A DNA stretch of 64,000 nucleotides from the NCBI GenBank assembly GCA_035299425.1, contig DATGWP010000167.1:17155-81154 (forward strand), in the 5' to 3' direction. The translations under genes were made by a program, and so were the position numbers. This stretch comes from Chitinophagales bacterium (lineage in GTDB: Bacteria; Bacteroidota; Bacteroidia; Chitinophagales; LD1). Positions 4,540 to 23,360 of the stretch are shown piece after piece. Numbering within the stretch: position 1 is the first letter of the stretch; the number at the start of each line of letters is the position of its first letter. Below the pieces are notes generated by a model. That model was not told where the DNA came from and made no database searches. It saw nothing but the letters and a program-made list of their open reading frames with translations.

Positions 4540-4567
4540 AGTGCTACAATTAAAACACAGCGCAGAC

Positions 4568-5389: not shown

Positions 5390-5443
5390 GGGCATTCCAA
5401 TAATTGACCGGCCAATTTTACGTGCCTTACTATACCTGTTGTT

Positions 5444-7576: not shown

Positions 7577-8580
7577 GTGCACCGGCCATATCTGTTTTAA
7601 TGCCGGTATACAATGGTGCCAGCTATTTGGCAACAGCTATCGACAGTATATTAAATCAAACCTTTACCGATTTTGAGCTACTGCTTATAAACGATGGTTC
7701 TACAGATAGCTCGGAGAATATAATACACAGTTATGCCGACCCGCGCATACGTTACATAAAGAATGAAACGAACATACGGCTGATAGCCACACTAAATAAA
7801 GGAATAGAGCTATGCCGCGGCAAATACATAGTGCGGATGGATGCTGATGACATAAGCGAGTTGAACAGGCTGCAGTTACAATACGATTTTATGGAAAGCC
7901 ACCCAGGTATTGCCCTATGCGGTTCGTGGTTCAAAATGTTTGGCGAGCAAAACAATATCATAAAGTATACAGGCACGCACGATGCCATCCGAATGAAGAT
8001 GTTGTATCAATGCCATTTTTGCCATCCATCGGTTATTATACGCACGGCTATGATAAAGACCATTGAGCCAAAATTTGATGCGGCCTTTATACACGCCGAA
8101 GATTATGAATTCTTCGCCCGCATAACCGAAAAATTTGAGACAGCCAATATTCAACGGGTGTTATTAAACTACCGCTTCCATGCCGGCAGTGTATCTACCC
8201 AAAACAAAAGTACACAGGTTAGCAACAGTGTAATTATAAAAAAACGGATGTTTGCCAAAATGGGGATAGATGCTACAGATGAAGATTTGCAGCTTTACCA
8301 AAGCATAGAACAGCACGAATACAAAAAGAGTATAGACTACCTGATGAAAAGTAAATTGCTGCTTGAAAAAATGTGCGCAGCAAACAATAGTAGCGGCTAT
8401 ATGAATAAACAATTTGTACAGCAGTACCTGGGGCAACTATGGTTTAATGTAGCTTATAACCTGAGTGCGTTGGGGCCCGTAGCTTTGCGCACCTACAAGT
8501 CTTCTACCCTATCTACCCATATCAATACCGGCCCAATGTTGCTTTTTAAGTTTCGTATTAAAACATTGCTTAAACGTTAA
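7573..8580 (+). CDS. Glycosyltransferase family 2
   Basis: ISVLMPVYNG, NDGSTDSS, RMDADDIS, AEDYEF. Confidence 0.92.
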   Translation: MSAPAISVLMPVYNGASYLATAIDSILNQTFTDFELLLINDGSTDSSENIIHSYADPRIRYIKNETNIRLIATLNKGIELCRGKYIVRMDADDISELNRLQLQYDFMESHPGIALCGSWFKMFGEQNNIIKYTGTHDAIRMKMLYQCHFCHPSVIIRTAMIKTIEPKFDAAFIHAEDYEFFARITEKFETANIQRVLLNYRFHAGSVSTQNKSTQVSNSVIIKKRMFAKMGIDATDEDLQLYQSIEQHEYKKSIDYLMKSKLLLEKMCAANNSSGYMNKQFVQQYLGQLWFNVAYNLSALGPVALRTYKSSTLSTHINTGPMLLFKFRIKTLLKR

Positions 8581-8585
8581 AAAAG

Positions 8586-9503
8586 ATGGCCGCATTTTTC
8601 AGTATAATAATGCCTACTTATAACCGGGCAGCCCTCATAAGCCGCGCTATTAAAAGTGTGCTGGCTCAAACTTACACAGATTGGGAGTTGGTAATAGTAG
8701 ATGACGGTTCTACTGATAACACAAAAGAAGTTGTGCTTTCATTTAACGATAGCCGTATTAAATATATTTTTCAAGATAACGCCGAGCGCAGTGTAGCGCG
8801 TAACAATGCAATGGCCCATAGTACCGGCACCTACATTTGTTTTTTGGATAGCGACGACTACTATCTACCCAACCGACTGAATCGCTTGCACGAGCACATT
8901 ACCCGGCTTGGGCAACCAGTAGCATTTTACTATACAGGTATAGCATACGAAATTAACGGACAAGTAAGTAACCGCCCCGAGCTAAAAAACACGGGCAACA
9001 ATATCTTCGATTTTATAGTGCAGGCTATTATAGGTACACCACAAGTCTGCATTCACCGCGATTTATTAAAACATAACAAATTTAACCCGGCTTTTCATAT
9101 CGGGGAAGATATGGAATTGTGGCTGCGCATAGCGCCCACGGCACCACCAAAATATTTGGATGATCAGTTTACAGTTGTAGCTGTTGAGCATGAAGACAGG
9201 TCGGTAAATGTAAAACGCTACAATAGCTTTCCTCACCAGTTGCGGATGCTTACTACAGTTTTTGCCAATAACCATTCAGGGCAAAAAATTTCGGCCCAGA
9301 TTAAAAGCAAGTTGCTAAGCAATTGCTACTTCGGTATAGCAAAATACCACATTTATGCCGGGAATAAGGGAAGTGCCCTGGTAAACCTTACAAAATCTAT
9401 AATCACGGATCTTTCTCATTACCAAACCAAGTACCGACTTAACATGTTGCTACGCTTATTGCTGCCGGGTGGCTTACAAAAGGCCACTATGTTACTTGAA
9501 TAA
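8586..9503 (+). CDS. Glycosyltransferase family 2
   Basis: FSIIMPTYNRA, VDDGSTDNT, FLDSDDYY, GEDMELW. Confidence 0.92.
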   Translation: MAAFFSIIMPTYNRAALISRAIKSVLAQTYTDWELVIVDDGSTDNTKEVVLSFNDSRIKYIFQDNAERSVARNNAMAHSTGTYICFLDSDDYYLPNRLNRLHEHITRLGQPVAFYYTGIAYEINGQVSNRPELKNTGNNIFDFIVQAIIGTPQVCIHRDLLKHNKFNPAFHIGEDMELWLRIAPTAPPKYLDDQFTVVAVEHEDRSVNVKRYNSFPHQLRMLTTVFANNHSGQKISAQIKSKLLSNCYFGIAKYHIYAGNKGSALVNLTKSIITDLSHYQTKYRLNMLLRLLLPGGLQKATMLLE

Positions 9504-9575
9504 ACTATCTATTTAACCAAGTGCTTGGCGATAAGCGCCACAAATTTACTTTTGCTGCACGCTCAGGGGCCTGTT

Positions 9576-10730
9576 ATGAAAAGGAAAAGCATTTTTATTG
9601 TCAGTACAGAATTTTTGCCTGGGCCTGGCGGCATTGGGTCGCACGCTTACCAGGTAGCTAAAGAACTACATAAGTTGGGTTGGCAGGTAATTGTTTTTAG
9701 CGAGCAGGGTAATTGCGGCGATGAAGAGATTGAAGAATTCAACCGTCAATCGCCTTTTAAGGTATTCAGGCTATTTCCCACCCCAAGTATGGTTTTGCTG
9801 ATAATGAAGCTACTGAAATTGGTATGGGCATCTATTACACAAAGGCCCGGCGTAATACTTGGTACCGGTAAACATGGTGCATGGTTTGCCGCGCTTACAG
9901 GCAAGTTAACCTTTACTCCAACTGCACTTATAGGTCACGGCACCGAGTTTATTGTTACTATGAGCGACCGCTCGAAAAAAATAAATGATTGGGTATTTAA
10001 TAGCGCAGGTGCAATTGTATATGTATCTAACTATACTAAACAAATTGCAGAGCAGGCCGGGGTATATAATAAAAATGCCCATGTGCTGCACAATGGCGGT
10101 GATGATGCACTGTTTTACCCGGTACCTGCTGAGCAAACGCTGGCATTCAAAAAAGCGAAAGGGATAGATGGGCAGAAGATTATACTAACCGTAGGTAACG
10201 TGCAACCCCGCAAAGGCCACGAGTTTGTGATAAGAGCGATGCCTGACATATTAAAAGCCATACCGGACGCGCATTATTACTGTGTAGGGCCGCCAACTAT
10301 TAAACCCTATCTGGAGGGCGTAGCTAAAGAGATGAACGTATCGCAGGCGGTGCATTTTCCCGGCCGTGTGCTGGAGGGCGAGCTTTTGCAATGGATGAAT
10401 GCCTGCGATGTATTTGCATTAACAAGTGTAGCTACCGACTATGGCGATATAGAAGGATTTGGTATTGTAATTATTGAGGCCGCTCTTTGCAAAAAACCTG
10501 CAGTGGTTACCAGCGAATCGGGGCCGGGTGAGGCTATTTCAGAAGGAGTAACCGGGCTGGGGGTGAAAGAAAAAGACAGCAAAGCTATAGCTGAAAAAAT
10601 AATATCCCTACTGGATAACGATGATCTTAGAAATAACATGGGCGAAAATGCATACCAAAATGCACTGGCCAACCTTACATGGACCCGGGTGGTAAAAAAA
10701 TACGATGAAGTGTTGAGTGCCTTGTTATAA
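9576..10730 (+). CDS. Glycosyltransferase family 4 (PimA/PimB-like); ORF track starts at 9525
   Basis: EFLPGPGGIG, TVGNVQPRKGH, EGFGIVIIEAALCKKPAV. Confidence 0.9.
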   Translation: MKRKSIFIVSTEFLPGPGGIGSHAYQVAKELHKLGWQVIVFSEQGNCGDEEIEEFNRQSPFKVFRLFPTPSMVLLIMKLLKLVWASITQRPGVILGTGKHGAWFAALTGKLTFTPTALIGHGTEFIVTMSDRSKKINDWVFNSAGAIVYVSNYTKQIAEQAGVYNKNAHVLHNGGDDALFYPVPAEQTLAFKKAKGIDGQKIILTVGNVQPRKGHEFVIRAMPDILKAIPDAHYYCVGPPTIKPYLEGVAKEMNVSQAVHFPGRVLEGELLQWMNACDVFALTSVATDYGDIEGFGIVIIEAALCKKPAVVTSESGPGEAISEGVTGLGVKEKDSKAIAEKIISLLDNDDLRNNMGENAYQNALANLTWTRVVKKYDEVLSALL

Positions 10731-12011
10731 CTATCCCACTAAAGCCATCACATCATTTACAAAATTTTGATTATTAACCTGAGCGTTGTACTTAGCATTC
10801 CAGGTACAGAAAGCATTTTTACGCAGCACGTTCTTTTGAGCCACCGGTAAGGCATTAAATTTCTCGATGGCTATTTTAACCTCGGCGCTATCGGGGTATG
10901 GTGATAATAAAAATCCATTTACACCGTGCTCTACAATCTCTGCCACGCCGCCCACATTTGTGCCTATTAGCGGCACGCTATAACTCATAGCCTCCATCAT
11001 AGAAACAGGAATCCCTTCTGTTTCACTCACGTTTAAATGCAAATCGAACGGCCTTTCTGCATACAAGTTAAATAAATCTTCCTTGCTTGTTTTGCCGGTA
11101 AAGCGGTAAGAAATATTGCTTTTACCACCAAGCTTATTGGCCGCATACTTCTGTACTTCTATAAAATCAGCTTCGTTGTGATTGCTGTGTCCTACATGAA
11201 CCCACTCTATTTTTGCATCACCCATCAGGGCAAGGGTATCTACTATAAGGTCAATTCTCTTTAGCTTTTGTATATAGCCCACACTTATTATCCGCAGCGT
11301 TTCGTCGGTACGTTGCTCAATAAAATTTGTGGGCGATTCTATGCCAATTCGGCTGATAGCTGTTTTCTGCATTTTATCTGTATCAAAATGGTGAGCCCTG
11401 GCAAAATAGTCGCGTGCATTCGCAGATATAAAATAGATTTTATCCATCTGGCTGAAAATAAACTGACGGAAAGGATGATACTTAACAGGGCTACGGTCAA
11501 AATACACATCTAAAGAATGGGCCCGCGTTATAGTTTTCACTTGAGAGTGTTGTTGTTTCAGCAGGGCAGATGCAAAACTGCTTTCTATCATCCAGTAAGA
11601 ATAAATCAGAAGATTATTCGTATCAATATTTTGCTCAAGTATTACCTGTTGCAAAAAACGCTTTGTTGTTATTGAGCGGGAGTAAAAAGCTAAAACCTCT
11701 TTTAACAGCCCGAAAGAGATCTTTTGTTTGTAAACAAAAAATAATCTAAAAATCTCCTGGCAGAACATTGGCTTAAAAACCAATAGCAACAAACTTACGA
11801 ACGAACTACGTTTCTCAAAAGGAGTGAACCGGTAAACTACAGCATTAGGCGGCGTAGGCCTTCTTTCCTCTGAAAAGGTGTTATTGGTTATAACAATAAC
11901 CTTTTCGAAGCTTTGGGACAGCAGGTCAATTTCTTTATCCAGGTAGCTATCTGATATATGAAAGGGATAGTGCAGTGAGAAAAAAATGATAGATTTGCCC
12001 TTGCTATTCAT
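10731..12011 (-). CDS. Glycosyltransferase family 4, antisense to the surrounding operon; paralog of 12609-13892
   Basis: TRAHSLDVY, KLKRIDLI, NVSETEGIPVSMMEAMSYSVPLIGTNVGGVAEIV. Confidence 0.88.
   Translation of the reverse strand: MNSKGKSIIFFSLHYPFHISDSYLDKEIDLLSQSFEKVIVITNNTFSEERRPTPPNAVVYRFTPFEKRSSFVSLLLLVFKPMFCQEIFRLFFVYKQKISFGLLKEVLAFYSRSITTKRFLQQVILEQNIDTNNLLIYSYWMIESSFASALLKQQHSQVKTITRAHSLDVYFDRSPVKYHPFRQFIFSQMDKIYFISANARDYFARAHHFDTDKMQKTAISRIGIESPTNFIEQRTDETLRIISVGYIQKLKRIDLIVDTLALMGDAKIEWVHVGHSNHNEADFIEVQKYAANKLGGKSNISYRFTGKTSKEDLFNLYAERPFDLHLNVSETEGIPVSMMEAMSYSVPLIGTNVGGVAEIVEHGVNGFLLSPYPDSAEVKIAIEKFNALPVAQKNVLRKNAFCTWNAKYNAQVNNQNFVNDVMALVG
11990..11997 (+). promoter_or_regulatory. 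Candidate Bacteroidota sigma-A -7 element (TAGATTTG) for the acyltransferase, lying inside the 5' end of the antisense GT4
   Basis: Exact TAnnTTTG match 25 nt upstream of ATG 12023. No matching -33 TTTG found. Confidence 0.45.
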
Positions 12012-12022
12012 ACTCAGCTAAT

Positions 12023-12619
12023 ATGAAATTAATCAACAGAATAAAAAACAAAATTAAGTACGAGTTTTTGCGTATGATAAAGCCGGAGATTATCTCTTAC
12101 CCTGGCAGTGATGCGGATGACCCCCTTAAAAAAAAGCGTTTCAGCAATTTCAGCCACATTTCTAAACCAGAAAATGTAAGCATTGGCGATAGTGTTTTTA
12201 TAGGTCACTACAACTATATAGATGGGTTTGAAAAAATTGAGATTGGCGAACGCTGCCAGATTACAAATTTCATAAGTATACTTACGCACTCTTCACATAA
12301 TTCTATCCGTCTGTATGGCCCTAAGTATGTTGCCAATTGGGGAACTAAGATGAAAGGCCTGCAATATGGCGAAGTAAAAATCGGGGCTTATACATTTATT
12401 GGGTCGCACTGCATTATCCTTCCCGGCACCGTATTGGGTAAAGGTTGCCTGGTAAGTGCCTATAGCCTGGTAAAAGGCCAGTTTCCTGATTACTCTGTTT
12501 TAAGGGGCATACCTGCTGTGGTAGTAGGCGACACGCGTAAGATGGATGAAAAATTACTGGCCGAATTTCCTGAACTAGAAGAGATGTATTATCATAAAAA
12601 TCTAACAACTAAAGGGTAA
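12023..12619 (+). CDS. Hexapeptide-repeat (left-handed beta-helix) O/N-acyltransferase
   Basis: VSIGDSVFIG, IEIGERCQI, VKIGAYTFIGSHCIILPGTVLGKGCLVSA, GIPAVVV. Confidence 0.88.
   Translation: MKLINRIKNKIKYEFLRMIKPEIISYPGSDADDPLKKKRFSNFSHISKPENVSIGDSVFIGHYNYIDGFEKIEIGERCQITNFISILTHSSHNSIRLYGPKYVANWGTKMKGLQYGEVKIGAYTFIGSHCIILPGTVLGKGCLVSAYSLVKGQFPDYSVLRGIPAVVVGDTRKMDEKLLAEFPELEEMYYHKNLTTKG
12049..12056 (-). promoter_or_regulatory. Candidate -7 element (TAATTTTG on minus strand) for GT4 10731-12011, lying inside the acyltransferase gene
   Basis: Plus-strand CAAAATTA is an exact TAnnTTTG match on the minus strand, 37 nt upstream of the ATG at 12011. Confidence 0.4.
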
Positions 12620-13892
12620 GCATCTTCTCAATTAGCGCAGCGCTGTTTCTATCTGCATCAAATTTTTCCTGCCAGGTTTTACGTGCCTGTTTAACCAGTT
12701 CTTCTTTACGTGCTAAGGGTAAATTGTACCAAGCGCGTATACTATCTGCTACCTGTTGTTCATTTATATCAACAGGTAGTAAAAACCCGTTTTCAGCATC
12801 TTGTATTATTTCGGGCACACCACCTACACTTGTGCCTATCACAGGCACCCCAAATGACAAAGCCTCCATCATTGAAACCGGAGTTCCTTCAGTAGTGCTT
12901 AAATTTATCAGCAAATTTATTTTGCGCTCAGGATAAAGTTCAAACAATTCCTCGCGGGTAACCCGGCCCAAAAATTCATAGCTAAGATTTTTTTTATGGC
13001 CCAGGTATTCTTCTGCCAGCGCTTTTAATGCAGGAAAACGCCCTGTGCCATAATCATCGCCCACGTGTATCCATTCAATTTCTATATCGTTTATCAGTGC
13101 CAGTGCTTTTATGAGTAGGTCTATCCTCTTTAGAGGTTGTATCCAGGCATTACTAAGAACTACAACGCGGTTAAAATTCTGCTTATAAGGTTTTAATGCG
13201 CATTGCGAGCCTATGCGGTTTACTATGCCCTTTTGCTGAAATGGTTTGCTGATATGATGTTGCGAAAAAAAGTACTGTCGCCCTTGCTCAGAAATGAAAG
13301 CAAACAAATCGCTCTTTAAGTAAACATAGCGCCGAAAGGGATGGTAGTGTTCGGGAACCCTATCAAAATACAGATCCAGGCTATGTGTCCGCACTACAGT
13401 TTTTAAAGGGTATTTTTTTTTTATCAATGTTGATGCGAGAGCATATTCAAAATTCCAGTAAGAATATACCCAAACATCGTGCGTAGTAAAATCCACAGAG
13501 CTTAAAAGCTTATCAAGAAACTTTTCCACTTTTACAGCCTTTGCAGCATAAGCTGCAATGGCTTTTAGCAAATCCAAGTTTAATGAGCGGCCATATACAC
13601 TTTTGAGCGCCTTTATTTCATTGCGAAAGAAACTGCGTGCCATAACCAGAGGCAACAACAGTTTATCTAAGGTTGATATATCTAACCGGAGATTATGCAC
13701 CATCACATTATTGGCTACTTCTACCTGCCCATTATGATCGGTACTCATTGAAATCACGATTACGGAATCAAAATTACGGCTAAGCTCTTCCACCTCACTT
13801 AACAAATAGGCATCATATAACACCTTGTTATGTGTTTTAGGATAAAATAATGTAAAAAAGAATGCTATTCTTTTTTTGCTATGTTTGTCCAT
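12609..13892 (-). CDS. Glycosyltransferase family 4, antisense; paralog of 10731-12011 (ORF track GTG start 13898)
   Basis: VRTHSLDLY, PLKRIDLL, NLSTTEGTPVSMMEALSFGVPVIGTSVGGVPEII. Confidence 0.88.
   Translation of the reverse strand: MDKHSKKRIAFFFTLFYPKTHNKVLYDAYLLSEVEELSRNFDSVIVISMSTDHNGQVEVANNVMVHNLRLDISTLDKLLLPLVMARSFFRNEIKALKSVYGRSLNLDLLKAIAAYAAKAVKVEKFLDKLLSSVDFTTHDVWVYSYWNFEYALASTLIKKKYPLKTVVRTHSLDLYFDRVPEHYHPFRRYVYLKSDLFAFISEQGRQYFFSQHHISKPFQQKGIVNRIGSQCALKPYKQNFNRVVVLSNAWIQPLKRIDLLIKALALINDIEIEWIHVGDDYGTGRFPALKALAEEYLGHKKNLSYEFLGRVTREELFELYPERKINLLINLSTTEGTPVSMMEALSFGVPVIGTSVGGVPEIIQDAENGFLLPVDINEQQVADSIRAWYNLPLARKEELVKQARKTWQEKFDADRNSAALIEKMLTL
13880..13887 (+). promoter_or_regulatory. 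Candidate -7 element (TATGTTTG) for methyltransferase 13911, inside the first codons of the antisense GT4
   Basis: Exact TAnnTTTG match 23 nt upstream of ATG 13911. Confidence 0.45.
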
Positions 13893-13910
13893 ACCCACGC
13901 AATATATAAA

Positions 13911-14723
13911 ATGACTGTATTTGTTAGAAAACTCGTAAACAAAATAGCTTCTGTGCTATTAAATAATCCGGCCACTAACTGGATTTTGATTGCCACCGGC
14001 TACGACTATTTACCCAAGGTTGTATTGCAAAAAAACAATTATCAAACACGAAAATACCTGGATGCGCTAACCCCGCATGAAAATGTGGGCTACTCGCTTA
14101 GGCCCGAAATACAGAAGCTTGTAAATGGTGCCCAGAGTAAATTAAAAAAATTTGCAAATGAGCACCTACTGCCGGGCCAGGCAATTTTAGATATAGGTTG
14201 CGGTGCGGGGTTATATTTAAAAGAATTTAATGATGCACCCTTTGAACTGTATGGTATAGATTTAAATGAAGCTTTTTTAGCTCAGGCAAAAGCAGTGGCG
14301 CCCAAAGCCCACTTGGTTAACGCAAACTATATAACCGGCTTTAATGCACCCCGCAAGTTTGACTTAATATGCAGTTTTAGCGTAACTATGTATATAGAGC
14401 CTTCGCGGATGAAGCTTTTTTTTGACAAAATGTATAACGACCTGAACCCCGGCGGGTATATATTTATTCAATATAGCCAGGCTATGCTATTTAGCGACCT
14501 GTTTTATCCTGAGCTTACTTACATTAAATACTCGCCGCACCGCATAGATAAACTGGCAGCGCAAAAATTTATTACTGTAAAACACGAGCACTTTTACCAT
14601 GGGCATAAGGCCAAATGGTACGATGGCAAGCATTATTACTTTCCCGATGGCACCAATACACGGTTGGATACCTTGGAAAATAGCTTTCTTTTGGTGCTTC
14701 AAAAACCAGGCAATGCGAGTTAG
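13911..14723 (+). CDS. Class I SAM-dependent methyltransferase (ORF track start 13881)
   Basis: ILDIGCGAG, YGIDLNE, FDLICSF, LNPGGYIFI. ATG preceded by A-rich AATATATAAA. Confidence 0.85.
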   Translation: MTVFVRKLVNKIASVLLNNPATNWILIATGYDYLPKVVLQKNNYQTRKYLDALTPHENVGYSLRPEIQKLVNGAQSKLKKFANEHLLPGQAILDIGCGAGLYLKEFNDAPFELYGIDLNEAFLAQAKAVAPKAHLVNANYITGFNAPRKFDLICSFSVTMYIEPSRMKLFFDKMYNDLNPGGYIFIQYSQAMLFSDLFYPELTYIKYSPHRIDKLAAQKFITVKHEHFYHGHKAKWYDGKHYYFPDGTNTRLDTLENSFLLVLQKPGNAS

Positions 14724-15708
14724 TATTTTACAAGAAGAATTATCAAAAGAGGCTCTTCGAAAATTACCTTTCCCCTTTTGTAAAGAATATGCTGATTTTG
14801 AGAAAGGAAGAGGATTTAGCTACTACATTCTTTCTGACGAAAAGAAAGAAATATTTATACCATTAAAAGTTTCGAAAAGACAAATTTTTTATGTCGCCAT
14901 ATTTACCCATGCACCGGTTAAAATTAATGATGATTTAAGCCCTGTAGAGGAAAAAGAATTTATATCTGCAGCTGCTGATTTATGCGCCAAGCAGCTTAAA
15001 TGCATCCGTATAGAACCGGGCTCTACCATATCGGCCTATCATGCTTTTCCTGACAATGCTACAGCCGTAGAACTAGGCATTTTCAGCATCAATTTGCTGC
15101 GTACAGAAGAAGAAATATTTGCCGATTTTAATCCCAAATACCGCACACAAATACGTAAAGCAGAAAGCCAGGGAATAGATGTACGATACGGCAGGAATGA
15201 AATTGGCGCCTTTTACGAGTGCTATGCCCATACGCATGACAGACAAGGCGCAGCCCATGAAAATCTCGCTTTTTTTGAGGATATGTATGATGCCTTGGGC
15301 GAGGATAAGACTATTTGCTGTACCGCTTATGCAAATGGCATGCTGGAATCAGGGACATTTATTGTATTTAACGATTATGCCGGATACTATATGTATGCGG
15401 GATCGGCAGAAAAAACGCTAATGAAGGGTAGTACCCGCAAAATATTATGGGAGTGCATGAAAGTGATGAAACAACGGGGAAGTGCAAAATTTGTATTAGG
15501 CGGTGCACGCTATAAAAATGTAGAAGGCACTAAATTTGAGCAGATACAGGATTTTAAGCGTCGGTTTGGAGCAGAAATTAAAGATGGTTATATCTGGAAA
15601 AAAGATTTGAACCCAGCTATGTGCAAGCTATATGATTTCTTATTTTGGCTCAGATGTCGGTTAAGGGGAAATGAGGTACCAAAGGATATTGTTGACAGTC
15701 AATTGTAA
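14713..15708 (+). CDS. FemAB/FemX-like GNAT-fold aminoacyl/acyl-transferase (VimA-like candidate)
   Basis: INLLRTEEEIFADFNPKYRTQIRKAESQG (Fem-type helix motif), YYMYAGS, FVLGG, FKRRFG. ATG 14713 overlaps the upstream stop. Confidence 0.72.
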   Translation: MRVSILQEELSKEALRKLPFPFCKEYADFEKGRGFSYYILSDEKKEIFIPLKVSKRQIFYVAIFTHAPVKINDDLSPVEEKEFISAAADLCAKQLKCIRIEPGSTISAYHAFPDNATAVELGIFSINLLRTEEEIFADFNPKYRTQIRKAESQGIDVRYGRNEIGAFYECYAHTHDRQGAAHENLAFFEDMYDALGEDKTICCTAYANGMLESGTFIVFNDYAGYYMYAGSAEKTLMKGSTRKILWECMKVMKQRGSAKFVLGGARYKNVEGTKFEQIQDFKRRFGAEIKDGYIWKKDLNPAMCKLYDFLFWLRCRLRGNEVPKDIVDSQL

Positions 15709-15710
15709 TT

Positions 15711-16748
15711 GTGAAGAAAACTCTGCTGCTCACATTTGATTATGAGCTATACCTGGGCGCCAATAGTGGCTCTGCCCAAAACTGTTCGATACTGCCTACC
15801 AATAAAATATTAGATATTTTGGGCAAGTATAAATGCACCGGTGTGTTTTTTATAGATAGCCTGTACCTGGTGCGGCTTAAAGAGGAAGTAGGCAGACAGC
15901 CTGCTGCACAAAAAGATTTTGACAGCGTTTTGGCACAAATACAGCGCATGGTGCGTGATGGCCATTTGGTTTACAACCACTTACACCCGCACTGGCTGGA
16001 TGCAAAATACGATGCCATCAGCAACACCTGGAACCTGGCGGATAAAAGTAAATTTGCCTTAAGCAATCTCAACCCCGCCGAACAGGATTATGTATTTGAT
16101 AGCAGCATGCAGCTGCTGTATAATATAATTAAACCGGTTAATCCCGATTATAAAATAAACGGCTACCGTGCTGGTGGTTTTTTTATTCAGCCATTTGAAA
16201 TTTTTAAGCGGCAGTTTATAAAGTATGGTATAAAATATGAGTTTAGTGTGCAGGCCGGCGCAAAATGCTCTGGACCCAACAACAGTTACTCATTTGACTA
16301 TACATCTACACCGGATAAAAGTTTTTATAATTTTGAAGACAAAGTTATACTGGAAAACCCCAACGGGCAATTTGTGCAATTTCCACTGCGCGAGTGCCGG
16401 GTAGAGGGTTGGCGCAAAATATATTCGGGGCTCCACTACAGGTTAACCTCACGCTATAAATACTACCAGCGCTATGGCGATGGCCTGCCATCGGGCAACC
16501 AGATAACTTTTGAAAAAGCCGGCATAAAAAGCCGCTTTAGCCACACCGAAGGCTTTAGCATAGAAAGCATGAATTCAGTAAAAATTGATTATTACATGCA
16601 GGAACTGGAAAATCACAATCACCTGCACATTATATCGCACCCGAAGCTGATATCGGATTATACACTTGATGTATTGGATAAGTTTCTGGCCCGCGTCACC
16701 AATAAATTTGAAATTATAACCCATCCGGCGTTAATTGCAGGGCAATAG
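15711..16748 (+). CDS. Polysaccharide deacetylase (CE4/NodB-like; VimE-like candidate)
   Basis: LLTFDYELY (TFD motif), NHLHPHW metal-binding His motif, GYRAGGF, IISHPK. Confidence 0.8.
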   Translation: MKKTLLLTFDYELYLGANSGSAQNCSILPTNKILDILGKYKCTGVFFIDSLYLVRLKEEVGRQPAAQKDFDSVLAQIQRMVRDGHLVYNHLHPHWLDAKYDAISNTWNLADKSKFALSNLNPAEQDYVFDSSMQLLYNIIKPVNPDYKINGYRAGGFFIQPFEIFKRQFIKYGIKYEFSVQAGAKCSGPNNSYSFDYTSTPDKSFYNFEDKVILENPNGQFVQFPLRECRVEGWRKIYSGLHYRLTSRYKYYQRYGDGLPSGNQITFEKAGIKSRFSHTEGFSIESMNSVKIDYYMQELENHNHLHIISHPKLISDYTLDVLDKFLARVTNKFEIITHPALIAGQ

Positions 16749-16753
16749 CCATT

Positions 16754-18046
16754 ATGCAAAAGGTATTGATAATTGCGTATTTCTTTCCACCGTGTAACCT
16801 TACTGCATCGGCCCGGCCGGCCGCATGGGCCAAATACCTCGGCCAGTTTGGCTACTATCCTATTGTAATTACCCGCAATTGGGATATTGCCATCAATAAG
16901 CCATCGGATATTTCGAAAACATCGGGCGAGGCTGAAAAGAAAGTGGAGAATGAACAAAGTACGGTGTATTACCTGCCTTATAAAGCATCGCTGAAGGACA
17001 AAATATACGCTGAGCATGGCGATAATAGATACCGTTTGCTACGCAAGGCACTTTCGTTTTTAGAGGTATTGTTTCAAAATTTCTTTTTGAGTGTAGTGCC
17101 TTTCAGCAATTTTTATGATAAAGCTGTTGAATTGGTTGAAAAAAATAAGGACTTAAACCGGGTGGTGATAACCGCTAATCCCTTTGTATCCTTTTTTATA
17201 GGCTACCGGTTGAAGACAAAATTTCCGCATATAAAATGGGTGGCTGACTACCGCGACGACTGGAGCACCAGCGATATAAATGTGCGCGAAAACAAGTTGG
17301 CAGAATTCATATTTAAGCTGGAGAACCGTAGTGAGAAAAAATGGGTGGGCACGGCAGCTATCATTACCACCATTTCTTCCTTTTATGCGCACAAGATATC
17401 GAAGTATGTTGGCGTAAAGGCTACAACCCTTTTGAATGGTTTTACCGAAGACGATTTAGCCAAAGTAAAAGACACCTCGCAACCCGGCGAGTTAAACATA
17501 ACCTACAACGGCACCTTATACCCCACACAAAATATTGAGCCTTTTTTACAAGGGTTTAAAAAAGCCGTAGATACATACGGCAACAGACTTAAATGCAAAT
17601 TGTATTTTCCAGGGCTGGCTTATTATGCCGAGCAGGCCAACCGCGTGCGCAGCAATATGCAGGGTTATGAAAATACGCTGGAGATAACCGAGCGCATACC
17701 CCGCGCTCAGGTATTTGATATACAAAACCGCTCGCATGCCTTTTTAATGGTATCGCACAATGGCATTAAAGGTATACCCAGCAGCAAGTTGTACGAATAT
17801 TTATGTTTCAGGAAACCTGTAATATTGTGCCCTAATGATGGCGATATTGTAGAAGAAACCCTGAACGACACCAACACCGGTATAATTTGTAATACGGCAG
17901 AGGATGTGTTTAAGGGTATAAGCCTGCTGGCAGAAGATATTTTGAAAAACGGCAGGGTTACCGCTGTGGCCAACGACGAACGTGTAATGAGCTATTCGAG
18001 AAAAAACCAGGCCAAAGTGCTGGCAGAAATACTAAACGGATTATGA
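16754..18046 (+). CDS. Glycosyltransferase family 4-like
   Basis: VLIIAYFFPP, WVADYRDDW, ITYNGTLY, IPSSKLYEYL. Confidence 0.8.
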   Translation: MQKVLIIAYFFPPCNLTASARPAAWAKYLGQFGYYPIVITRNWDIAINKPSDISKTSGEAEKKVENEQSTVYYLPYKASLKDKIYAEHGDNRYRLLRKALSFLEVLFQNFFLSVVPFSNFYDKAVELVEKNKDLNRVVITANPFVSFFIGYRLKTKFPHIKWVADYRDDWSTSDINVRENKLAEFIFKLENRSEKKWVGTAAIITTISSFYAHKISKYVGVKATTLLNGFTEDDLAKVKDTSQPGELNITYNGTLYPTQNIEPFLQGFKKAVDTYGNRLKCKLYFPGLAYYAEQANRVRSNMQGYENTLEITERIPRAQVFDIQNRSHAFLMVSHNGIKGIPSSKLYEYLCFRKPVILCPNDGDIVEETLNDTNTGIICNTAEDVFKGISLLAEDILKNGRVTAVANDERVMSYSRKNQAKVLAEILNGL

Positions 18047-19137
18047 AAAAAATACTGGCCTGTGTAGGCACCCGCCCAAATTTTATTAAGATAGTAAAGC
18101 TGGAAAAGCTATTTGCCGAAGCGGGATTTGAATACCGCATACTGCACACCGGCCAGCATTTCGACCAAAAGATGAGCGATGTATTCTTCCACCAGCTTAA
18201 GCTGCGCAAACCCGACTACTATTTAGGTATAGGCGGTGGCAGCAACAATGAGGTAGTGGGTAAAATAATAGTAGAAACAGAAAAAATATTACTGGAGTAT
18301 AAGCCAGACATACTGATAGTGCCCGGCGATGTAAACTCAACCTTTGCCTGTGCCTTTGCGGCAGCATCGCTGCGGATACCAGTAGGCCACATAGAGAGCG
18401 GCCTGCGCAGCGGCGATATGGATATGCCCGAAGAACGCAACCGGATATTGACTGACTCTTTATCGGACTTATTATTTGTAACCGAACCGGTAGGGGTTGA
18501 CTTTTTGCGCAAGGCCGGTGTAGACGAAAAGAAAATAAAACTGGTAGGTAACACTATAGTAGATGCACTAACAGAAATGCTGCCGGTAGTAGATGATTGT
18601 AAAGTGCTGGATGAACTTGGTGTAGCCAAACCATATGCGGTTGTTACCTTCCACCGTCCCGTAAACGTAGATGACGAAAAGAACCTGGGTATAATAGTAG
18701 ATGCATTGGCGCGCATATCGGTAATGATGCAAGTGGTGTTCCCTATACATCCGCGCACATTAAAAAGACTGGAGGCAACAGGATTAAAAAGCAAAATAGA
18801 TAACCCCAACATTAAACTGACAGAACCTCTAGGCTATATTGAGTTTTTGAAACTGATGAAAGAAAGCGTTTGTATCATCAGCGATTCCGGCGGGGTGCAG
18901 ATAGAATCGAGCTATTTTAACATACCGTGCTTTACCGTACGCGATACTACTGAGCTGAAGATAACCATAGAAGAAGGTACCAACCGGCTAATGGAGCTGG
19001 ATGCAGCTAAAATTGCAGCCGAAGTAAAACAGGTAATTGACAAACCCAACACCCCGCCCAAACAGCCATGGCTGTGGGATGGCAAGGCCTCTGAGCGCAT
19101 TGTAGAAGAGGTAAAGAGTTTTTTAATCGGGCGATAA
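18043..19137 (+). CDS. wecB: UDP-N-acetylglucosamine 2-epimerase, non-hydrolysing (WecB/WbpI family)
   Basis: GTRPNFIK, HTGQH, GDVNS, HIESGLRS, MPEERNR, SDSGGVQIE. Confidence 0.92.
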   Translation: MKKILACVGTRPNFIKIVKLEKLFAEAGFEYRILHTGQHFDQKMSDVFFHQLKLRKPDYYLGIGGGSNNEVVGKIIVETEKILLEYKPDILIVPGDVNSTFACAFAAASLRIPVGHIESGLRSGDMDMPEERNRILTDSLSDLLFVTEPVGVDFLRKAGVDEKKIKLVGNTIVDALTEMLPVVDDCKVLDELGVAKPYAVVTFHRPVNVDDEKNLGIIVDALARISVMMQVVFPIHPRTLKRLEATGLKSKIDNPNIKLTEPLGYIEFLKLMKESVCIISDSGGVQIESSYFNIPCFTVRDTTELKITIEEGTNRLMELDAAKIAAEVKQVIDKPNTPPKQPWLWDGKASERIVEEVKSFLIGR

Positions 19138-19164
19138 AGTTATTTTTGGGGATATTTGAGAGGG

Positions 19165-20130
19165 ATGAAAAACTTTGTTCTGATTGGTGCTTCGGGCTAT
19201 ATAGCTCCCCGCCATTTAAAAGCCGTAAAAGATACCGGTAACCAGCTACTAGCCGCCTACGATCCGTTTGACAGCGTGGGTATAATGGATAGCTATTTTC
19301 CTAACGCCGATTTTTTTGTAGAGTTTGAGCGGTTCGACAGGCACGTAGATAAGCTAAAGCGAAAAGACATACCGCTTGATTATGTGTCTATATGCTCGCC
19401 TAACTACCTGCACGATTCGCACATACGCTTTGGCCTGCGCAATGGTGCCGATGTGATTTGCGAAAAGCCGCTGGTGCTTAACCCGTGGAATGCGCAAAGC
19501 CTGATAGACCTGGAAAAAGAAACCGGCAAGCACATTAACAACATATTGCAGCTACGCCTGCACCCCAACATTATAGCGCTAAAGAAAAAAGTAGACGAAA
19601 GCCCGAAGGATAAAATTTTCGATTTCGACTTAACCTATATCACCTCGCGCGGTAACTGGTACTACACCAGCTGGAAAGGCGATGTAAGCAAAAGCGGTGG
19701 CATAGCCACCAACATAGGCATTCACTTTTTCGATATGCTTACCTGGATATTTGGCGCTGTAAAAACCAATATTGTGCATGTGCATACTCATGACCGCGCA
19801 GCCGGTTATTTAGAGTTTGAAAAAGCAAGGGTGCGTTGGTTTTTAAGCATCAATGCAGATACATTGCCCGATGCTGCCAAACAAAAAAACATGCGCACTT
19901 ACCGCAGTATGAACCTGGAGGGCCAGGAAATTGAATTCAGCGATGGATTTACCGACCTGCACACCGCCAGCTATACCGAAATAATTAAAGGGAACGGCTT
20001 TACGGTAAAAGATGCCATGCCGAGTATTGAAATAGCATACACCATACGTAAAGAAACACCGGTGGGGCTTAAAGGCGATTATCACCCGTTTGCAAAAACA
20101 CCGGGTGGCAATCATCCTTTCCATGTTTAA
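19165..20130 (+). CDS. wbpB: UDP-N-acetylglucosaminuronate 3-dehydrogenase (WbpB/WlbA, Gfo/Idh/MocA family)
   Basis: KNFVLIGASGYIAPRHLKAVKDTGN, YDPFDSVG, SICSPNYLHDSH, CEKPLVLNPW, SGGIATNIGIHFFD closely follow the WbpB pattern. Confidence 0.88.
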   Translation: MKNFVLIGASGYIAPRHLKAVKDTGNQLLAAYDPFDSVGIMDSYFPNADFFVEFERFDRHVDKLKRKDIPLDYVSICSPNYLHDSHIRFGLRNGADVICEKPLVLNPWNAQSLIDLEKETGKHINNILQLRLHPNIIALKKKVDESPKDKIFDFDLTYITSRGNWYYTSWKGDVSKSGGIATNIGIHFFDMLTWIFGAVKTNIVHVHTHDRAAGYLEFEKARVRWFLSINADTLPDAAKQKNMRTYRSMNLEGQEIEFSDGFTDLHTASYTEIIKGNGFTVKDAMPSIEIAYTIRKETPVGLKGDYHPFAKTPGGNHPFHV

Positions 20131-20169
20131 ATTGTTGTTTGGTGTTTCACCTATAAGTTTTGAATAAGC

Positions 20170-22020
20170 ATGTGCGGAATAACCGGGTATTACTCCCCAT
20201 CTAGAAAAATAAACGAAGCCGACCTGCACCGGATGACGGACTGCATCAGCCACCGAGGGCCGGATGCTGCAGGTTACTTTTTTGATGATGCAAAAACCAT
20301 AGGCCTGGGGCACCGCCGTTTAAGTATTATAGATTTAAGCGAGGCTGCCAACCAGCCTTTTTACTCGCATAGCGGCCGGTATGTTACCGTATTTAACGGC
20401 GAGGTTTACAATTTTCAGGAAATAGCTAAGCAGTTAAACATTACCCAGCGCACCAGCAGCGATACCGAAATAATAATAGAGGCCTTTGAAAAAAAGGGAG
20501 TTGATTTTGTGCACTTACTCAATGGCATGTTTGCCATTGCTATATGGGATAAACAAGACCATAAGCTTTATCTTTTCCGCGACCGGTTGGGCGTAAAACC
20601 TTTATACTATTATCATAAAGATGGTGAGTTTGCCTTTGGCTCAGAGATTAAAGCGCTGCTAAAGATTGATGAAGTAGCCAACTATGCTAAGCCGGATAAC
20701 AAAACTATTTACACGTTTTTATATTGCGGCTATGTGCCTGAACCGTTTACGGGCTTTAGCCATATACGCCGTTTACCTGCCGGTAGCTTTGCAGTTGTAG
20801 ATGCGAATGGCATAAACATTAAAAACTATTGGAAACCCGAAGAGAAGGTCACCCCTCGGGTTGAAACAGATTTCAAATCGGCGAAAGAAGAGCTTAAAAA
20901 CCTGCTGGTATCATCGGTAAAATACCGGATGATAGCCGATGTGCCATTCGGTACCTTTTTAAGCGGTGGTATAGATAGCAGCACGGTTACAGCTATAGCC
21001 CAAAGCATTAGCAGCAAACCGGTAAAAACTTTCTCTATAGGGTTTAAGGAAGCAAAGTTTAACGAGAGCGAGTACGCTAAAAAAGTGTCGAAACACTTAG
21101 GCACCGAGCATTATGAATTTATTGTAACCGAGGCGGACGCTATGGGGCTTATAGACCGAATGCTGAATGCATACGATGATTTGTATTCAGAGTCATCGGG
21201 CATACCTACCATGCTGGTATCTAAACTAGCAAGGCAACATGTAACCATGACCCTGAGCGGCGATGGTGGTGATGAATTGTTTATGGGTTATGGCTCGTAC
21301 GACTGGGCAAAGCGGTTAAACAATCCGCTGGTAAAAATGCTGCGTAAGCCTGGTGCCGCATTATTATCGATGGCTGGTGGAAAATATAGGCGCGCAGCCG
21401 GAGTAATCAACTACAAAAGCGAAAAGCATTTAAAAAGCCATATCTTTTCGCAAGAGGAATACTACTTTAACGAGAGTGAGTTAGACAGTTTATTAAAGCC
21501 TGAATTAAAAACCCAATTGCTGTTTGACGAGCATTTGAATACCGCCCGCCAACTATCGCCGGCAGAAGAACAAGCCTTGTTTGATATTAAATATTACCTG
21601 AAAGACACTCTGCTTACCAAAGTAGATATAGCCAGTATGCAATACTCGCTGGAGACACGCACACCGTTTTTAGATTACCGGGTGGTAGAGTTTGCGCTCA
21701 ATCTTTCGGAAGATTTGAAGAAGAAAGACGGCACTGCTAAATACCTGCTAAAAGAAGTGCTGTACGATTATGTACCGCGCCAGTTTTTTGATAGGCCTAA
21801 ATGGGGCTTTTCTATTCCGCTAGGCAAATGGCTGCTTACCGATCTGCACTACCTGCTGGATAAATACCTGAGCGAAGAAACCGTGACCCAATGCAATGTG
21901 GTAAACTACAGCGTAGTAAAAAGCCTGCTTCAGCGATTTAAAAACGGCGAAGACTATTTGTTTAAGCGCATCTGGATATTGATAATCCTTCACCATTGGT
22001 TACTTAAATATAAGGGATGA
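20170..22020 (+). CDS. asnB: Asparagine synthase (glutamine-hydrolysing)-like amidotransferase (polysaccharide-associated, WbpS-like)
   Basis: N-terminal MCGITG (Ntn Cys), HRGPD, HRRLSIID, LSGGIDSS, LSGDGGDE, RPKWGF. Confidence 0.92.
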   Translation: MCGITGYYSPSRKINEADLHRMTDCISHRGPDAAGYFFDDAKTIGLGHRRLSIIDLSEAANQPFYSHSGRYVTVFNGEVYNFQEIAKQLNITQRTSSDTEIIIEAFEKKGVDFVHLLNGMFAIAIWDKQDHKLYLFRDRLGVKPLYYYHKDGEFAFGSEIKALLKIDEVANYAKPDNKTIYTFLYCGYVPEPFTGFSHIRRLPAGSFAVVDANGINIKNYWKPEEKVTPRVETDFKSAKEELKNLLVSSVKYRMIADVPFGTFLSGGIDSSTVTAIAQSISSKPVKTFSIGFKEAKFNESEYAKKVSKHLGTEHYEFIVTEADAMGLIDRMLNAYDDLYSESSGIPTMLVSKLARQHVTMTLSGDGGDELFMGYGSYDWAKRLNNPLVKMLRKPGAALLSMAGGKYRRAAGVINYKSEKHLKSHIFSQEEYYFNESELDSLLKPELKTQLLFDEHLNTARQLSPAEEQALFDIKYYLKDTLLTKVDIASMQYSLETRTPFLDYRVVEFALNLSEDLKKKDGTAKYLLKEVLYDYVPRQFFDRPKWGFSIPLGKWLLTDLHYLLDKYLSEETVTQCNVVNYSVVKSLLQRFKNGEDYLFKRIWILIILHHWLLKYKG

Positions 22021-23249
22021 CCGAAGTACTTTACATGAGTTACGACGGCATGACCGACCCGCTGGGCCAAAGCCAGGTTATTCCGTATATCAAAGGACTG
22101 TCTAAACTCGGTTATCATTTCACCCTTATTAGTTTTGAGAAGAAAGACCGTCTTGAAAAATTCGGGGCAGTTATAGCAGCGCTGCTAAAAGACAACAACA
22201 TCGATTGGGTGCCGCTATCTTACACCAAAAGCCCGCCGGTACTTTCTACTATTTACGATACCTGGCGTATGCGCAGGAAGGCGTTTGAGTTACATAGCCG
22301 AAAGAAATTCAGCATAGTGCATTGCCGCAGTTACATTTCGGCACTGGTGGGGCTGGCCATGAAAAAGAAGTTTGGCACAAAGTTCATTTTTGATATGCGC
22401 GGTTTTTATGCCGATGAACGGGTAGATGGCGGCCTGTGGAAGTTAGATAGCCCGCTTTACAAAATGGTGTATGACTTTTTTAAGCGGAAGGAAGTTGAGT
22501 TTTTAACCCATGCCGACCATACTATCAGCCTGACTGAAAACGGCAAGCGTATTATTCATTCGTGGGCGCACATACCCAACCAACCCGTACCTATACAGGT
22601 AATACCCTGCTGTGCCGACCTGGATAAATTTAGTCCCGAAAGTGTAGACCATAGCAAATTACAAGCGCTTAAAAATGAACTGGGCATAAAGCCCGATGAC
22701 TTTGTAATAAGCTACCTGGGCAGTGTAGGCACCTGGTATATGCTGGATGAAATGCTTGCCTTTTTTAAATGCCTGCTGGAGAAAAAACCTCAGGCCAGGT
22801 TTCTGTTTATTACCAACGAGCCGGCCGAACTGGTGCTGAGCAAAGCGCGCGAATTGCAGATTGCCGCTGATAGGTTTATCATAACCCCATCGCCAAGCCC
22901 ACTGGTGCCAACTTATTTGTCGCTCTCCTCCATATCCTTTTTCTTTATCAAGCCTGTGTTTAGCAAGCAGGCTTCCTCTCCTACCAAGCAGGGCGAAATA
23001 ATGGGCATGGGCATACCCTACATTTGCAACACCGGTGTGGGCGATGTAGATGAAATTGTTAAAGACACCCGCTCGGGCTACCTTGTAGACCATTTTACCG
23101 TAGAAGACTACCGTAAAACTATTAATACTATACTTACTACTACCCTGAATGCCAACGAAATAAGGCAAGGGGCCTTCAAATATTACTCGCTGACTAAAGG
23201 AGTAGACAACTACAATAATGTTTATTGCAAACTTCTTGCAAAAACATAG
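22017..23249 (+). CDS. Glycosyltransferase family 4
   Basis: YDGMTDPLGQSQV, HCRSY, FDMRGF, SPTKQGEIMGMGIP. Confidence 0.85.
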   Translation: MTEVLYMSYDGMTDPLGQSQVIPYIKGLSKLGYHFTLISFEKKDRLEKFGAVIAALLKDNNIDWVPLSYTKSPPVLSTIYDTWRMRRKAFELHSRKKFSIVHCRSYISALVGLAMKKKFGTKFIFDMRGFYADERVDGGLWKLDSPLYKMVYDFFKRKEVEFLTHADHTISLTENGKRIIHSWAHIPNQPVPIQVIPCCADLDKFSPESVDHSKLQALKNELGIKPDDFVISYLGSVGTWYMLDEMLAFFKCLLEKKPQARFLFITNEPAELVLSKARELQIAADRFIITPSPSPLVPTYLSLSSISFFFIKPVFSKQASSPTKQGEIMGMGIPYICNTGVGDVDEIVKDTRSGYLVDHFTVEDYRKTINTILTTTLNANEIRQGAFKYYSLTKGVDNYNNVYCKLLAKT

Positions 23250-23360
23250 AGCTATACCTATAAATAAGCATCTTTGAGAGTGAGGCAGACCGTCCATAAA
23301 TTTACGGTTGGCCGATTTGAGTTCGCATTTAATATCTTATATTTACGTATATCATTAAGA

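Follow-up and report, generated by a model that had tools for sequence, protein, structure and literature searches.

Two paralogous glycosyltransferase genes on the opposite strand of a Chitinophagales surface-glycan cluster: conserved head-to-head pairs with predicted antisense overlap

Introduction

The genome of an uncultured Chitinophagales bacterium (a MAG) carries a surface-glycan cluster that spans at least 44 kb and, apart from two genes, here named GTa and GTb, runs in one direction. From the contig start to position 26861 of the window (the whole 64,000-nt stretch of DNA analysed), all other genes lie on the plus strand, and these two are the sole minus-strand genes against about 45 plus-strand glycan genes. 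The question raised by this locus is why two genes should be kept on the opposite strand of such a cluster, and whether their layout ties their expression to that of their neighbours.

Noncontiguous operons are defined by co-transcription across an antisense gene, and in Staphylococcus aureus 18 candidates, such as menE-menC-MW1733-ytkD-MW1731, have been reported, 16 of which were confirmed by RT-PCR (PMC11034616). With regard to excludons, which occur in Listeria and others, transcriptional interference and RNase III cleavage have been proposed (PMC7154746, PMC12288877).

Gene Content and Layout of the Locus

A first-pass annotation of this DNA had described five genes of alternating orientation with almost no space between them. 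The ORF calls of the window bear out this +/-/+/-/+ order across 9525-14723, and all four junction sizes were reproduced from the ORF coordinates. A plus-strand GT4 glycosyltransferase gene (9525..10730; ORF call and domain match) is the convergent, tail-side neighbour of GTa (10731..12011, minus strand), and the stop codons of the two abut with a gap of 0 nt. GTa lies head-to-head, across 11 nt (12012-12022), with a plus-strand gene for a hexapeptide-repeat acyltransferase (12023..12619), which resembles WbbJ/WcaF-like O-acetyltransferases in its domain match and neighbourhoods. The reading frame of this gene overlaps the 3′ end of GTb (12609..13892, minus strand) by 11 nt (12609..12619). GTb in turn lies head-to-head with a plus-strand gene for a SAM-dependent methyltransferase (13911..14723; domain match and neighbourhoods) across 18 nt (13893-13910), a gap that assumes ATG starts at 13892 for GTb and 13911 for the methyltransferase. 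Both starts are backed by ortholog N-termini; the longest GTb ORF extends to 13898, and the longest methyltransferase ORF begins at 13881.

GTa (426 aa) and GTb (427 aa) share 37% identity over their full length (E 5e-93). Both match Glycos_transf_1 (PF00534), for which the cut-off is 26.4 bits, with scores of 65 and 80 bits, and contain the EX7E motif (EGIPVSMME and EGTPVSMME). Their closest PDB matches are BshA-type GT4 enzymes, while the N-terminal half of each is without a Pfam match. By sequence, both are assigned to the GT4 retaining glycosyltransferases. Orthologs of GTa were found in seven other MAG species at 53-67% identity, and the exact GTa protein is encoded on none of the public contigs searched.

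The plus-strand genes that flank GTa and GTb encode functionally related glycan enzymes according to domain searches. The methyltransferase gene appears, from domain matches and neighbourhoods, to lead a Wbp/Vim-like sugar-modification module; the co-oriented genes downstream (14599..23249, plus strand) encode a FemAB-like protein, a CE4 deacetylase-like protein, a 430-aa GT-B-like protein, a UDP-GlcNAc 2-epimerase, a GFO oxidoreductase, an AsnB-type amidotransferase and a GT4 enzyme. The 430-aa gene was considered as a further paralog of GTa and dismissed, as no paralogy was found; a sequence search returned no solved structures related to its product. All partners of GTa and GTb are glycan-building or glycan-modifying enzymes, with no antagonism evident among them. 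Searches of window positions 1-30000 gave no match to known RNA families.

It is extremely improbable that the layout is an assembly artefact, a phase-variable invertible segment or the product of spurious minus-strand ORFs. Both minus-strand ORFs combine strong GT4 domain matches with full-length homologs, and the longest ORF on the plus strand opposite them has only 81 codons. A comparison of orientation in related genomes, which had been named beforehand as a check, recovered the same layout in MAGs assembled independently by different studies. A search for flanking inverted repeats gave nothing beyond chance length, and the opposite state was never met among close orthologs. The phase-variable segment was rejected on these two grounds, and the earlier suggestion that no DNA inversion takes place at the locus is upheld.

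Conservation of the Layout in Related Genomes

The same alternating layout is present in five relatives (G001, G004, G014, L027 and L031), and two others (L025 and L028) have GTa only, antisense to both neighbours. Single-copy homologs antisense to both neighbours occur in ten further Chitinophagales genomes (G022, G008, G016, G017, G023, G019, G024, G028, L040 and L044), one of which, G028, belongs to a different family. The arrangement is thus kept in related species, and the antisense genes lie between co-oriented genes of related function, both of which are features by which noncontiguous operons are recognized.

The head-to-head partners are fixed: GTa faces the acyltransferase gene in 8/8 cases and GTb the methyltransferase gene in 6/6, while the single-copy antisense transferases face the 430-aa gene in all genomes but G019. 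The tail-side neighbours, on the other hand, differ among genomes. In G022 this position is taken by an unrelated AcrB-type (RND) efflux-pump gene, identified by a Pfam match, and in G016 also by an AcrB-type pump gene, as judged by its length and matching flanking ORFs only. It is the pairing of each transferase with the gene head-to-head to it, and not the interruption of an operon, that these neighbourhoods show to be conserved. A tree of the transferases traces the clades of GTa and of GTb, supported at 99 and 100, to a single old duplication, and the antisense state is clustered on it (0/500 shuffles gave a value as low).

These data bear on a neutral account, in which an ancestral divergent pair simply persisted, compaction pushed the promoters into the coding regions of the neighbours, and the resulting overlap has no regulatory role. 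The orientation would persist because precise single-gene inversions are rare. We regard this account as possible but rather doubtful. In its favour, the antisense state is largely inherited, with well-supported branches forcing as few as two changes; the pump genes at the tail side in G022 and G016 fit it as well. Moreover, the transferase is co-oriented with its neighbours in the G012 lineage, which functions with this copy, so the antisense layout is not obligatory, and in three genomes the divergent gap is of ordinary size, about 200-250 nt. According to the crude ORF calls made here for the whole genome, tight convergent junctions are also fairly common, with gaps of 21 nt or less in 30% of convergent pairs.

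Against the neutral account, all eight GTa/acyltransferase pairs have kept a head-to-head spacing of 11-20 nt. In addition, the tail junctions remain tight (-37 to +21 nt) in 22/24 loci with an opposite-strand tail neighbour, beside many different genes. 

As a genome background, the same crude calls give gaps of 21 nt or less for 6% of divergent pairs and of 0 nt or less for 11% of convergent pairs. They also give about 20/3608 genes that run antisense to both neighbours and have no gap above 40 nt on either side. The others among these tight singletons were set aside as comparable loci, since they are housekeeping genes unrelated to this locus, and the starts of some are probably over-extended.

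Candidate Promoters within the Facing Genes

With start codons 11-20 nt apart, each promoter would be embedded in the opening 5-12 codons of the gene that faces it. The first-pass annotation had pointed to exact TAnnTTTG motifs at 11990 and 13880 on the plus strand and at 12049-12056 on the minus strand, and all three were found. In Bacteroidota, the -7 box occupies positions -12 to -5, and 5′ UTRs have medians of 24 and 32 nt (PMC9723704). The candidate sigma-A -7 box of the acyltransferase gene, TAGATTTG (11990..11997, plus strand), falls in GTa codons 5-8 and predicts a transcription start site (TSS) near 12002 and a 5′ UTR of about 21 nt. The candidate box of GTa itself, TAATTTTG (12049..12056, minus strand), falls in acyltransferase codons 9-12, with a predicted TSS near 12044 and a 5′ UTR of about 33 nt. 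A third, TATGTTTG (13880..13887, plus strand), lies in GTb codons 2-5 and may serve the methyltransferase and downstream genes, with a predicted TSS near 13892 and a 5′ UTR of about 19 nt. The implied UTRs of 19-33 nt agree with the Bacteroidota medians.

Genome-wide, TAnnTTTG peaks between -10 and -60 relative to the start codon, with 20-31 matches in each 10-nt bin, compared with 2-9 per bin beyond -100 and within genes; in this genome the motif is thus a valid promoter signal. Across the entire window it is not enriched (80 matches vs 77.4 expected); since this raw count is at chance, only positional conservation counts as evidence. Expected numbers were obtained by synonymous recoding of the orthologs, with N-terminal codon usage for P values. 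The acyltransferase box is exact at the same place in 5/8 orthologs (0.32-0.39 expected; P = 1e-6), the methyltransferase box in 4/6 (0.67-0.69 expected; P = 1e-3), and the GTa box in 6/8, where it precedes the start of GTa by 31-37 nt (0.7-1.0 expected; P = 4e-6); these counts come from orthologs that are not fully independent of one another. In three orthologs, TAnnTTCG stands where the exact box would be. Among control families that are co-oriented in these loci, the box occurs in 4/62 cases, and its genome-wide background is 3.2%. The boxes proposed in the first pass are thus conserved beyond what the protein sequence requires, and their retention in place despite near-saturated synonymous sites speaks against the neutral account.

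A broad synonymous constraint over the first 25 codons was also considered and dismissed, since conservation of synonymous sites rises only modestly (0.51-0.59 vs 0.45-0.50 mid-gene) and stays inside the control range (0.42-0.68). Upstream of GTb, the canonical box is found in 0/6 orthologs; two weak candidates came up, one a box of the TAnnTTGY type that the window and L031 have in codons 11-13 of the methyltransferase gene, the other TATTTTCG, which 4/6 orthologs have some 154 nt upstream. At the junctions between single-copy transferases and the 430-aa gene, the canonical box is absent from promoter-like positions, although two of these loci have an isolated box at a distance of 50 and 81 nt.

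Predicted Transcript Overlap and Its Possible Consequences

At the first head-to-head junction, an overlap of about 40 nt covering both start codons had been anticipated; the boxes predict about 43 nt (12002..12044), likewise including both start codons, over which the GTa transcript and that of the acyltransferase gene would overlap at their 5′ ends. No terminator hairpin was detected by folding at either convergent junction, as had been noted before: shuffled sequence folds more strongly than the sequence there (z +0.9 to +1.7), and the region has no excess of terminator-like matches (6 vs 7.2 expected by chance). Because the stop codons abut or overlap and no terminator is present, the transcripts would also overlap at their 3′ ends. 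That antisense overlap is obligatory at this locus, in a layout of the excludon type, is well supported as a prediction from the gene and box coordinates.

The lack of a terminator at 10730 or 12619, or of any above chance inside the antisense genes, would also suit a true noncontiguous operon, in which a long plus-strand mRNA spans GTa and GTb, co-transcribes the flanking genes and represses both transferases throughout; such an mRNA may coexist with internal promoters. The functionally related flanking enzymes and the conserved arrangement point the same way, and these features were also argued for the S. aureus cases (PMC11034616). We consider this explanation unlikely. The conserved internal promoters of the acyltransferase and methyltransferase genes make read-through unnecessary, and read-through cannot be a conserved feature, because a pump gene lies upstream in G022 and G016 and the L025 cluster ends after the acyltransferase gene. 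Noncontiguous operons are, in addition, not predictable without a transcriptome according to the source paper (PMC11034616).

GTa and GTb are anciently fixed opposite-strand genes, and each is paired head-to-head with one plus-strand gene, GTa with the acyltransferase gene and GTb with the methyltransferase gene. On balance, we lean, with modest confidence, towards a reading in which they belong to at least five interleaved transcription units, whose sense/antisense overlap would be obligatory and would couple their expression. At the first junction, two promoters whose start sites are about 43 bp from one another would be directed face to face, and polymerase collision or RNA duplexes could couple the level of the transferase to that of its partner, probably reciprocally. 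RNase III is encoded in the genome, which permits a duplex-cleavage mechanism.

A more far-reaching version, which we hold to be quite improbable, sees an old head-to-head module, spread across Chitinophagales, as an inversion-free bistable switch, in which a GT4 transferase gene and the leading gene of a sugar-modification operon would each harbour the other's promoter in their first codons. The cell would make either a transferase-dependent glycan or an acetylated/methylated/aminoacylated (Wbp/Vim-like) one, and duplication in the genus would have yielded two coupled switches with up to four glycoforms.

Comparison with Known Systems

As in the noncontiguous operons of S. aureus, opposite genes lie between co-oriented related genes, the neighbourhood is conserved and antisense overlap is expected. 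That class, however, is defined by co-transcription, whereas the plus-strand segments of the present locus have apparent conserved promoters of their own inside the antisense genes; two paralogous antisense genes alternate with plus-strand genes, and the host is a member of the Bacteroidota with a different promoter type. The locus shares with excludons opposite-strand neighbours whose transcripts (here predicted) overlap in untranslated regions. Unlike classical excludons, in which an unusually long UTR covers the neighbour, the overlap here would result from extreme compaction, and no opposing functions are apparent in the paired genes.

In coliphage 186, the pR and pL promoters lie face-to-face with start sites tens of bp apart and hinder initiation at each other. 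The predicted promoters described here likewise face each other a few tens of bp apart, but both lie inside protein-coding sequence and would drive biosynthetic enzymes. In Bacteroides capsule loci, invertible promoters switch polysaccharide genes and so vary the surface glycan, for which inverted repeats and a recombinase are needed; the present locus has neither, and its orientation is fixed across genomes.

Implications

For genome annotation, loci of this kind would be mis-split by operon predictors, and the embedded promoters yield exact start-site predictions. Should the overlap have no regulatory role, the locus would remain a clean case of extreme intergenic compaction without loss of gene function. 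If it is regulatory, promoter boxes can persist inside protein-coding N-termini over very long periods. Glycan variation in Bacteroidota is usually put down to invertible promoters; a regulatory overlap would mean that surface-glycan genes in this phylum may also be controlled by antisense transcription or interference, without DNA inversion.

Organization of the Cluster and Its Two Antisense Genes

The MAG of 4.9 Mb that contains the window (C167:17155-81154) has close relatives labeled as uncultured Chitinophaga or Chitinophagales. From the contig start to window position 26861, all genes of at least 120-150 codons but two lie on the plus strand. The cluster genes scanned by Pfam, all located beyond ~7.5 kb from the contig start, encode glycan-building enzymes nearly throughout (GT2, GT4, and GT11 transferases, epimerases, methyltransferases, a DegT aminotransferase, and a formyltransferase). 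The two minus-strand genes, GTa (10731-12011, 426 aa) and GTb (12609-13892, 427 aa), each have a Glycos_transf_1 domain and an EX7E motif, share 37% identity from end to end, and have BshA-type GT4 enzymes as top PDB matches. A plus-strand hexapeptide acyltransferase gene (12023-12619) lies between them, and a plus-strand methyltransferase gene (13911-14723) comes next after GTb, followed by FemAB-like, CE4-like, 430-aa (GT-B-like), epimerase, GFO, AsnB-type, and GT4 genes.

The junction sizes described in the first-pass annotation, both tail-to-tail (0 nt and an 11-nt overlap) and head-to-head (11 and 18 nt), were recovered from the ORF layout, and the ATG starts assumed for GTb and the methyltransferase agree with ortholog N-termini. 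As had also been described, neither convergent junction has a terminator hairpin (folding energies were weaker than those of shuffled sequence). Terminator-like matches were at chance level, the Rfam search of window 1-30000 gave zero family matches, and no inverted repeats flanking the antisense genes were found beyond short, chance-level ones.

After GTb (14599-23249) lies a gene set reminiscent of the Porphyromonas and Tannerella Wbp/Vim linking-sugar pathway, with FemAB/VimA-like, CE4/VimE-like, WbpI-like epimerase, GFO/WbpB-like oxidoreductase, and AsnB/WbpS-like amidotransferase (TIGR03108) genes. A DegT aminotransferase gene is located upstream of this module (L047, 11669-12802), and the gene directly after it (23274-26861) encodes a T9SS cargo protein of 1195 aa that combines PKD-like repeats with a Por_Secre_tail domain. 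The longest FemAB-like ORF overlaps the methyltransferase gene by 125 nt (14599-14723); since its product has 369 aa versus 327-358 aa in orthologs, translation probably begins at a start codon further downstream.

Conservation of the Divergent Gene Pairs

The +/-/+/-/+ layout with the same gene families was also detected in the related genomes G001, G004, and G014 (where two genes separate the transferases) and at loci L027 and L031, and this recurrence shows that the orientation is not an artefact. GTa occurs without GTb, again antisense, in L025 and L028. In L025, a 465-aa ORF without a Pfam match (3996-5393) holds the position and orientation of GTb beside the acyltransferase, and the glycan cluster ends there, as S41 peptidase genes come next. 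Ten more genomes or loci (G022, G008, G016, G017, G023, G019, G024, L040, L044, and G028, the last from another family of the order) have single-copy homologs (30-39% identity) antisense to both neighbours. Exceptions to the antisense state are G012 (co-oriented) and L030 (partly co-oriented). Beyond Chitinophagales, distant homologs from Anaerolineae, Clostridia, and Cyclobacteriaceae run in the same direction as both neighbours, and one from Flavobacteriia (L034) shares the direction of a single neighbour.

In a maximum-likelihood tree, the GTa clade (8 members, support 99) is sister to the GTb clade (6 members, support 100), which points to a single duplication predating the divergence of these species. 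Seven single-copy antisense genes form a separate clade (support 99), and antisense orientation clusters strongly across the tree. Judged from sequence comparison, the antisense arrangement is old.

Each lineage retains one head-to-head partner. GTa is opposite the acyltransferase in 8/8 cases (gaps of 11-20 nt, with starts corrected by alignment), GTb is opposite the methyltransferase in 6/6, and the single-copy antisense genes are opposite the 430-aa gene in all but G019. In this last group the gap is 21-40 nt (six genomes) or about 200-250 nt (three genomes), and it is undefined in G016, whose longest ORFs overlap. The tail-side neighbour varies among a GT4, an unrelated GT4, an 814-aa double GT4, a FemAB-like gene, and an AcrB-type efflux pump (in G022 by Pfam and apparently in G016, by gene order only). 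Because the head-to-head partner is kept while the tail neighbour changes, it is the divergent pair that is conserved as a unit, and the "operon interruption" is the appearance of such a pair once further plus-strand glycan genes sit on its tail side. Despite the change of neighbour, 22 of the 24 loci with an opposite-strand tail neighbour have a tail junction within -37 to +21 nt.

Both pump ORFs are ~1120 aa long and convergent with the antisense GT: an AcrB-type RND pump identified by Pfam (L016 of G022, 5318-8686) and a putative pump recognized by matching 377- and 484-aa neighbours (L018 of G016, 7942-11307). Stop codons at these junctions overlap by 11-12 nt, and thus an unrelated operon abuts the glycan genes with zero terminator space.

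Candidate Promoter Boxes Embedded in the Facing Genes

In Bacteroidota, the sigma-A -7 box TAnnTTTG spans -12 to -5 from the start site, and 5′ UTRs have a median length of 24 nt (Flavobacterium psychrophilum) or 32 nt (Bacteroides thetaiotaomicron) (PMC9723704, PMC7366714). Genome-wide, TAnnTTTG counts in 10-nt bins rise to 20-31 between -10 and -60 relative to start codons, compared with 2-9 beyond -100 and within genes. Over the whole window it is not enriched (80 found vs 77.4 expected), and therefore one isolated occurrence means little. Overlapping boxes on both strands at 9541-9554, within codons 6-10 of the co-oriented GT4 gene (9525-10730), lack conservation among orthologs and are probably due to chance.

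All three boxes reported by the first-pass annotation were present where it had placed them, and among orthologs an opposing-strand box occurs at a fixed position within the first 25 codons of the facing gene. Boxes were found in GTa for the acyltransferase in 5/8 orthologs (expected 0.32-0.39, P 1e-6), in GTb for the methyltransferase in 4/6 (expected 0.67-0.69, P 1e-3), and in the acyltransferase for GTa in 6/8 (expected 0.73-0.96, P 4e-6). Expected counts were obtained by synonymous-codon recoding of each protein; the P values use N-terminal codon usage, and the excess also stands under cluster-wide usage. Identical-codon fractions among orthologs are about 0.45-0.5, with synonymous sites near saturation, so that the samples are close to independent at those sites. 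As a control, 4/62 genes of thirteen co-oriented families at the same loci had a box, without positional conservation except for one position common to two GT2 orthologs; the genome-wide rate is 3.2%.

In three orthologs of one subclade (L013, L014, and L027), TAnnTTCG replaces the exact box at the same positions in the GTa/GTb N-termini, owing to a Lys-to-Glu change in the transferase. No canonical box was found for GTb (0/6 orthologs), nor at a promoter-like position in the single-copy junctions, where two loci have isolated boxes at distances of 50 and 81 nt. Some 45 nt ahead of the GTb start, TATTTTGT (13935-13945, minus strand; equivalent in L031) matches TAnnTTGY, a box reported in F. 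psychrophilum for an alternative sigma motif that is associated with LPS genes (PMC9723704); it is a possible but unsupported candidate for the GTb promoter.

Possible Regulatory Consequences

Judging by the box positions, transcription would start at about 12002(+), 12044(-), and 13892(+), which would give 5′ UTRs of 21, 33, and 19 nt, respectively. At the first junction, the predicted transcripts would overlap by 43 nt, a stretch that includes both start codons, in line with the earlier estimate of roughly 40 nt. The predicted face-to-face promoters, about 43 bp apart, would be expected to interfere with each other, and the complementary 5′ ends might form RNA duplexes; an RNase III gene is present in the genome. 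At the convergent junctions, geometry would force the transcript 3′ ends to overlap.

A serious rival explanation, judged less likely than not, is that the orientation is simply inherited, with promoters pushed into neighbouring genes by compaction and overlap lacking any regulatory role. The first-pass observation holds, and its interpretation is partly supported: the geometry of the convergent junctions and the conserved boxes within the facing genes speak for antisense overlap, and plus-strand read-through, reciprocal expression of the two GTs and the acyl-/methyltransferases, and an effect on the glycan would be further, hypothetical steps. According to the literature on noncontiguous operons, in which one mRNA spans an antisense gene, calling them requires a transcriptome (PMC11034616). 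On sequence grounds, the description that fits the locus best is a conserved arrangement of excludon type, with interleaved transcription units and embedded, face-to-face predicted promoters.
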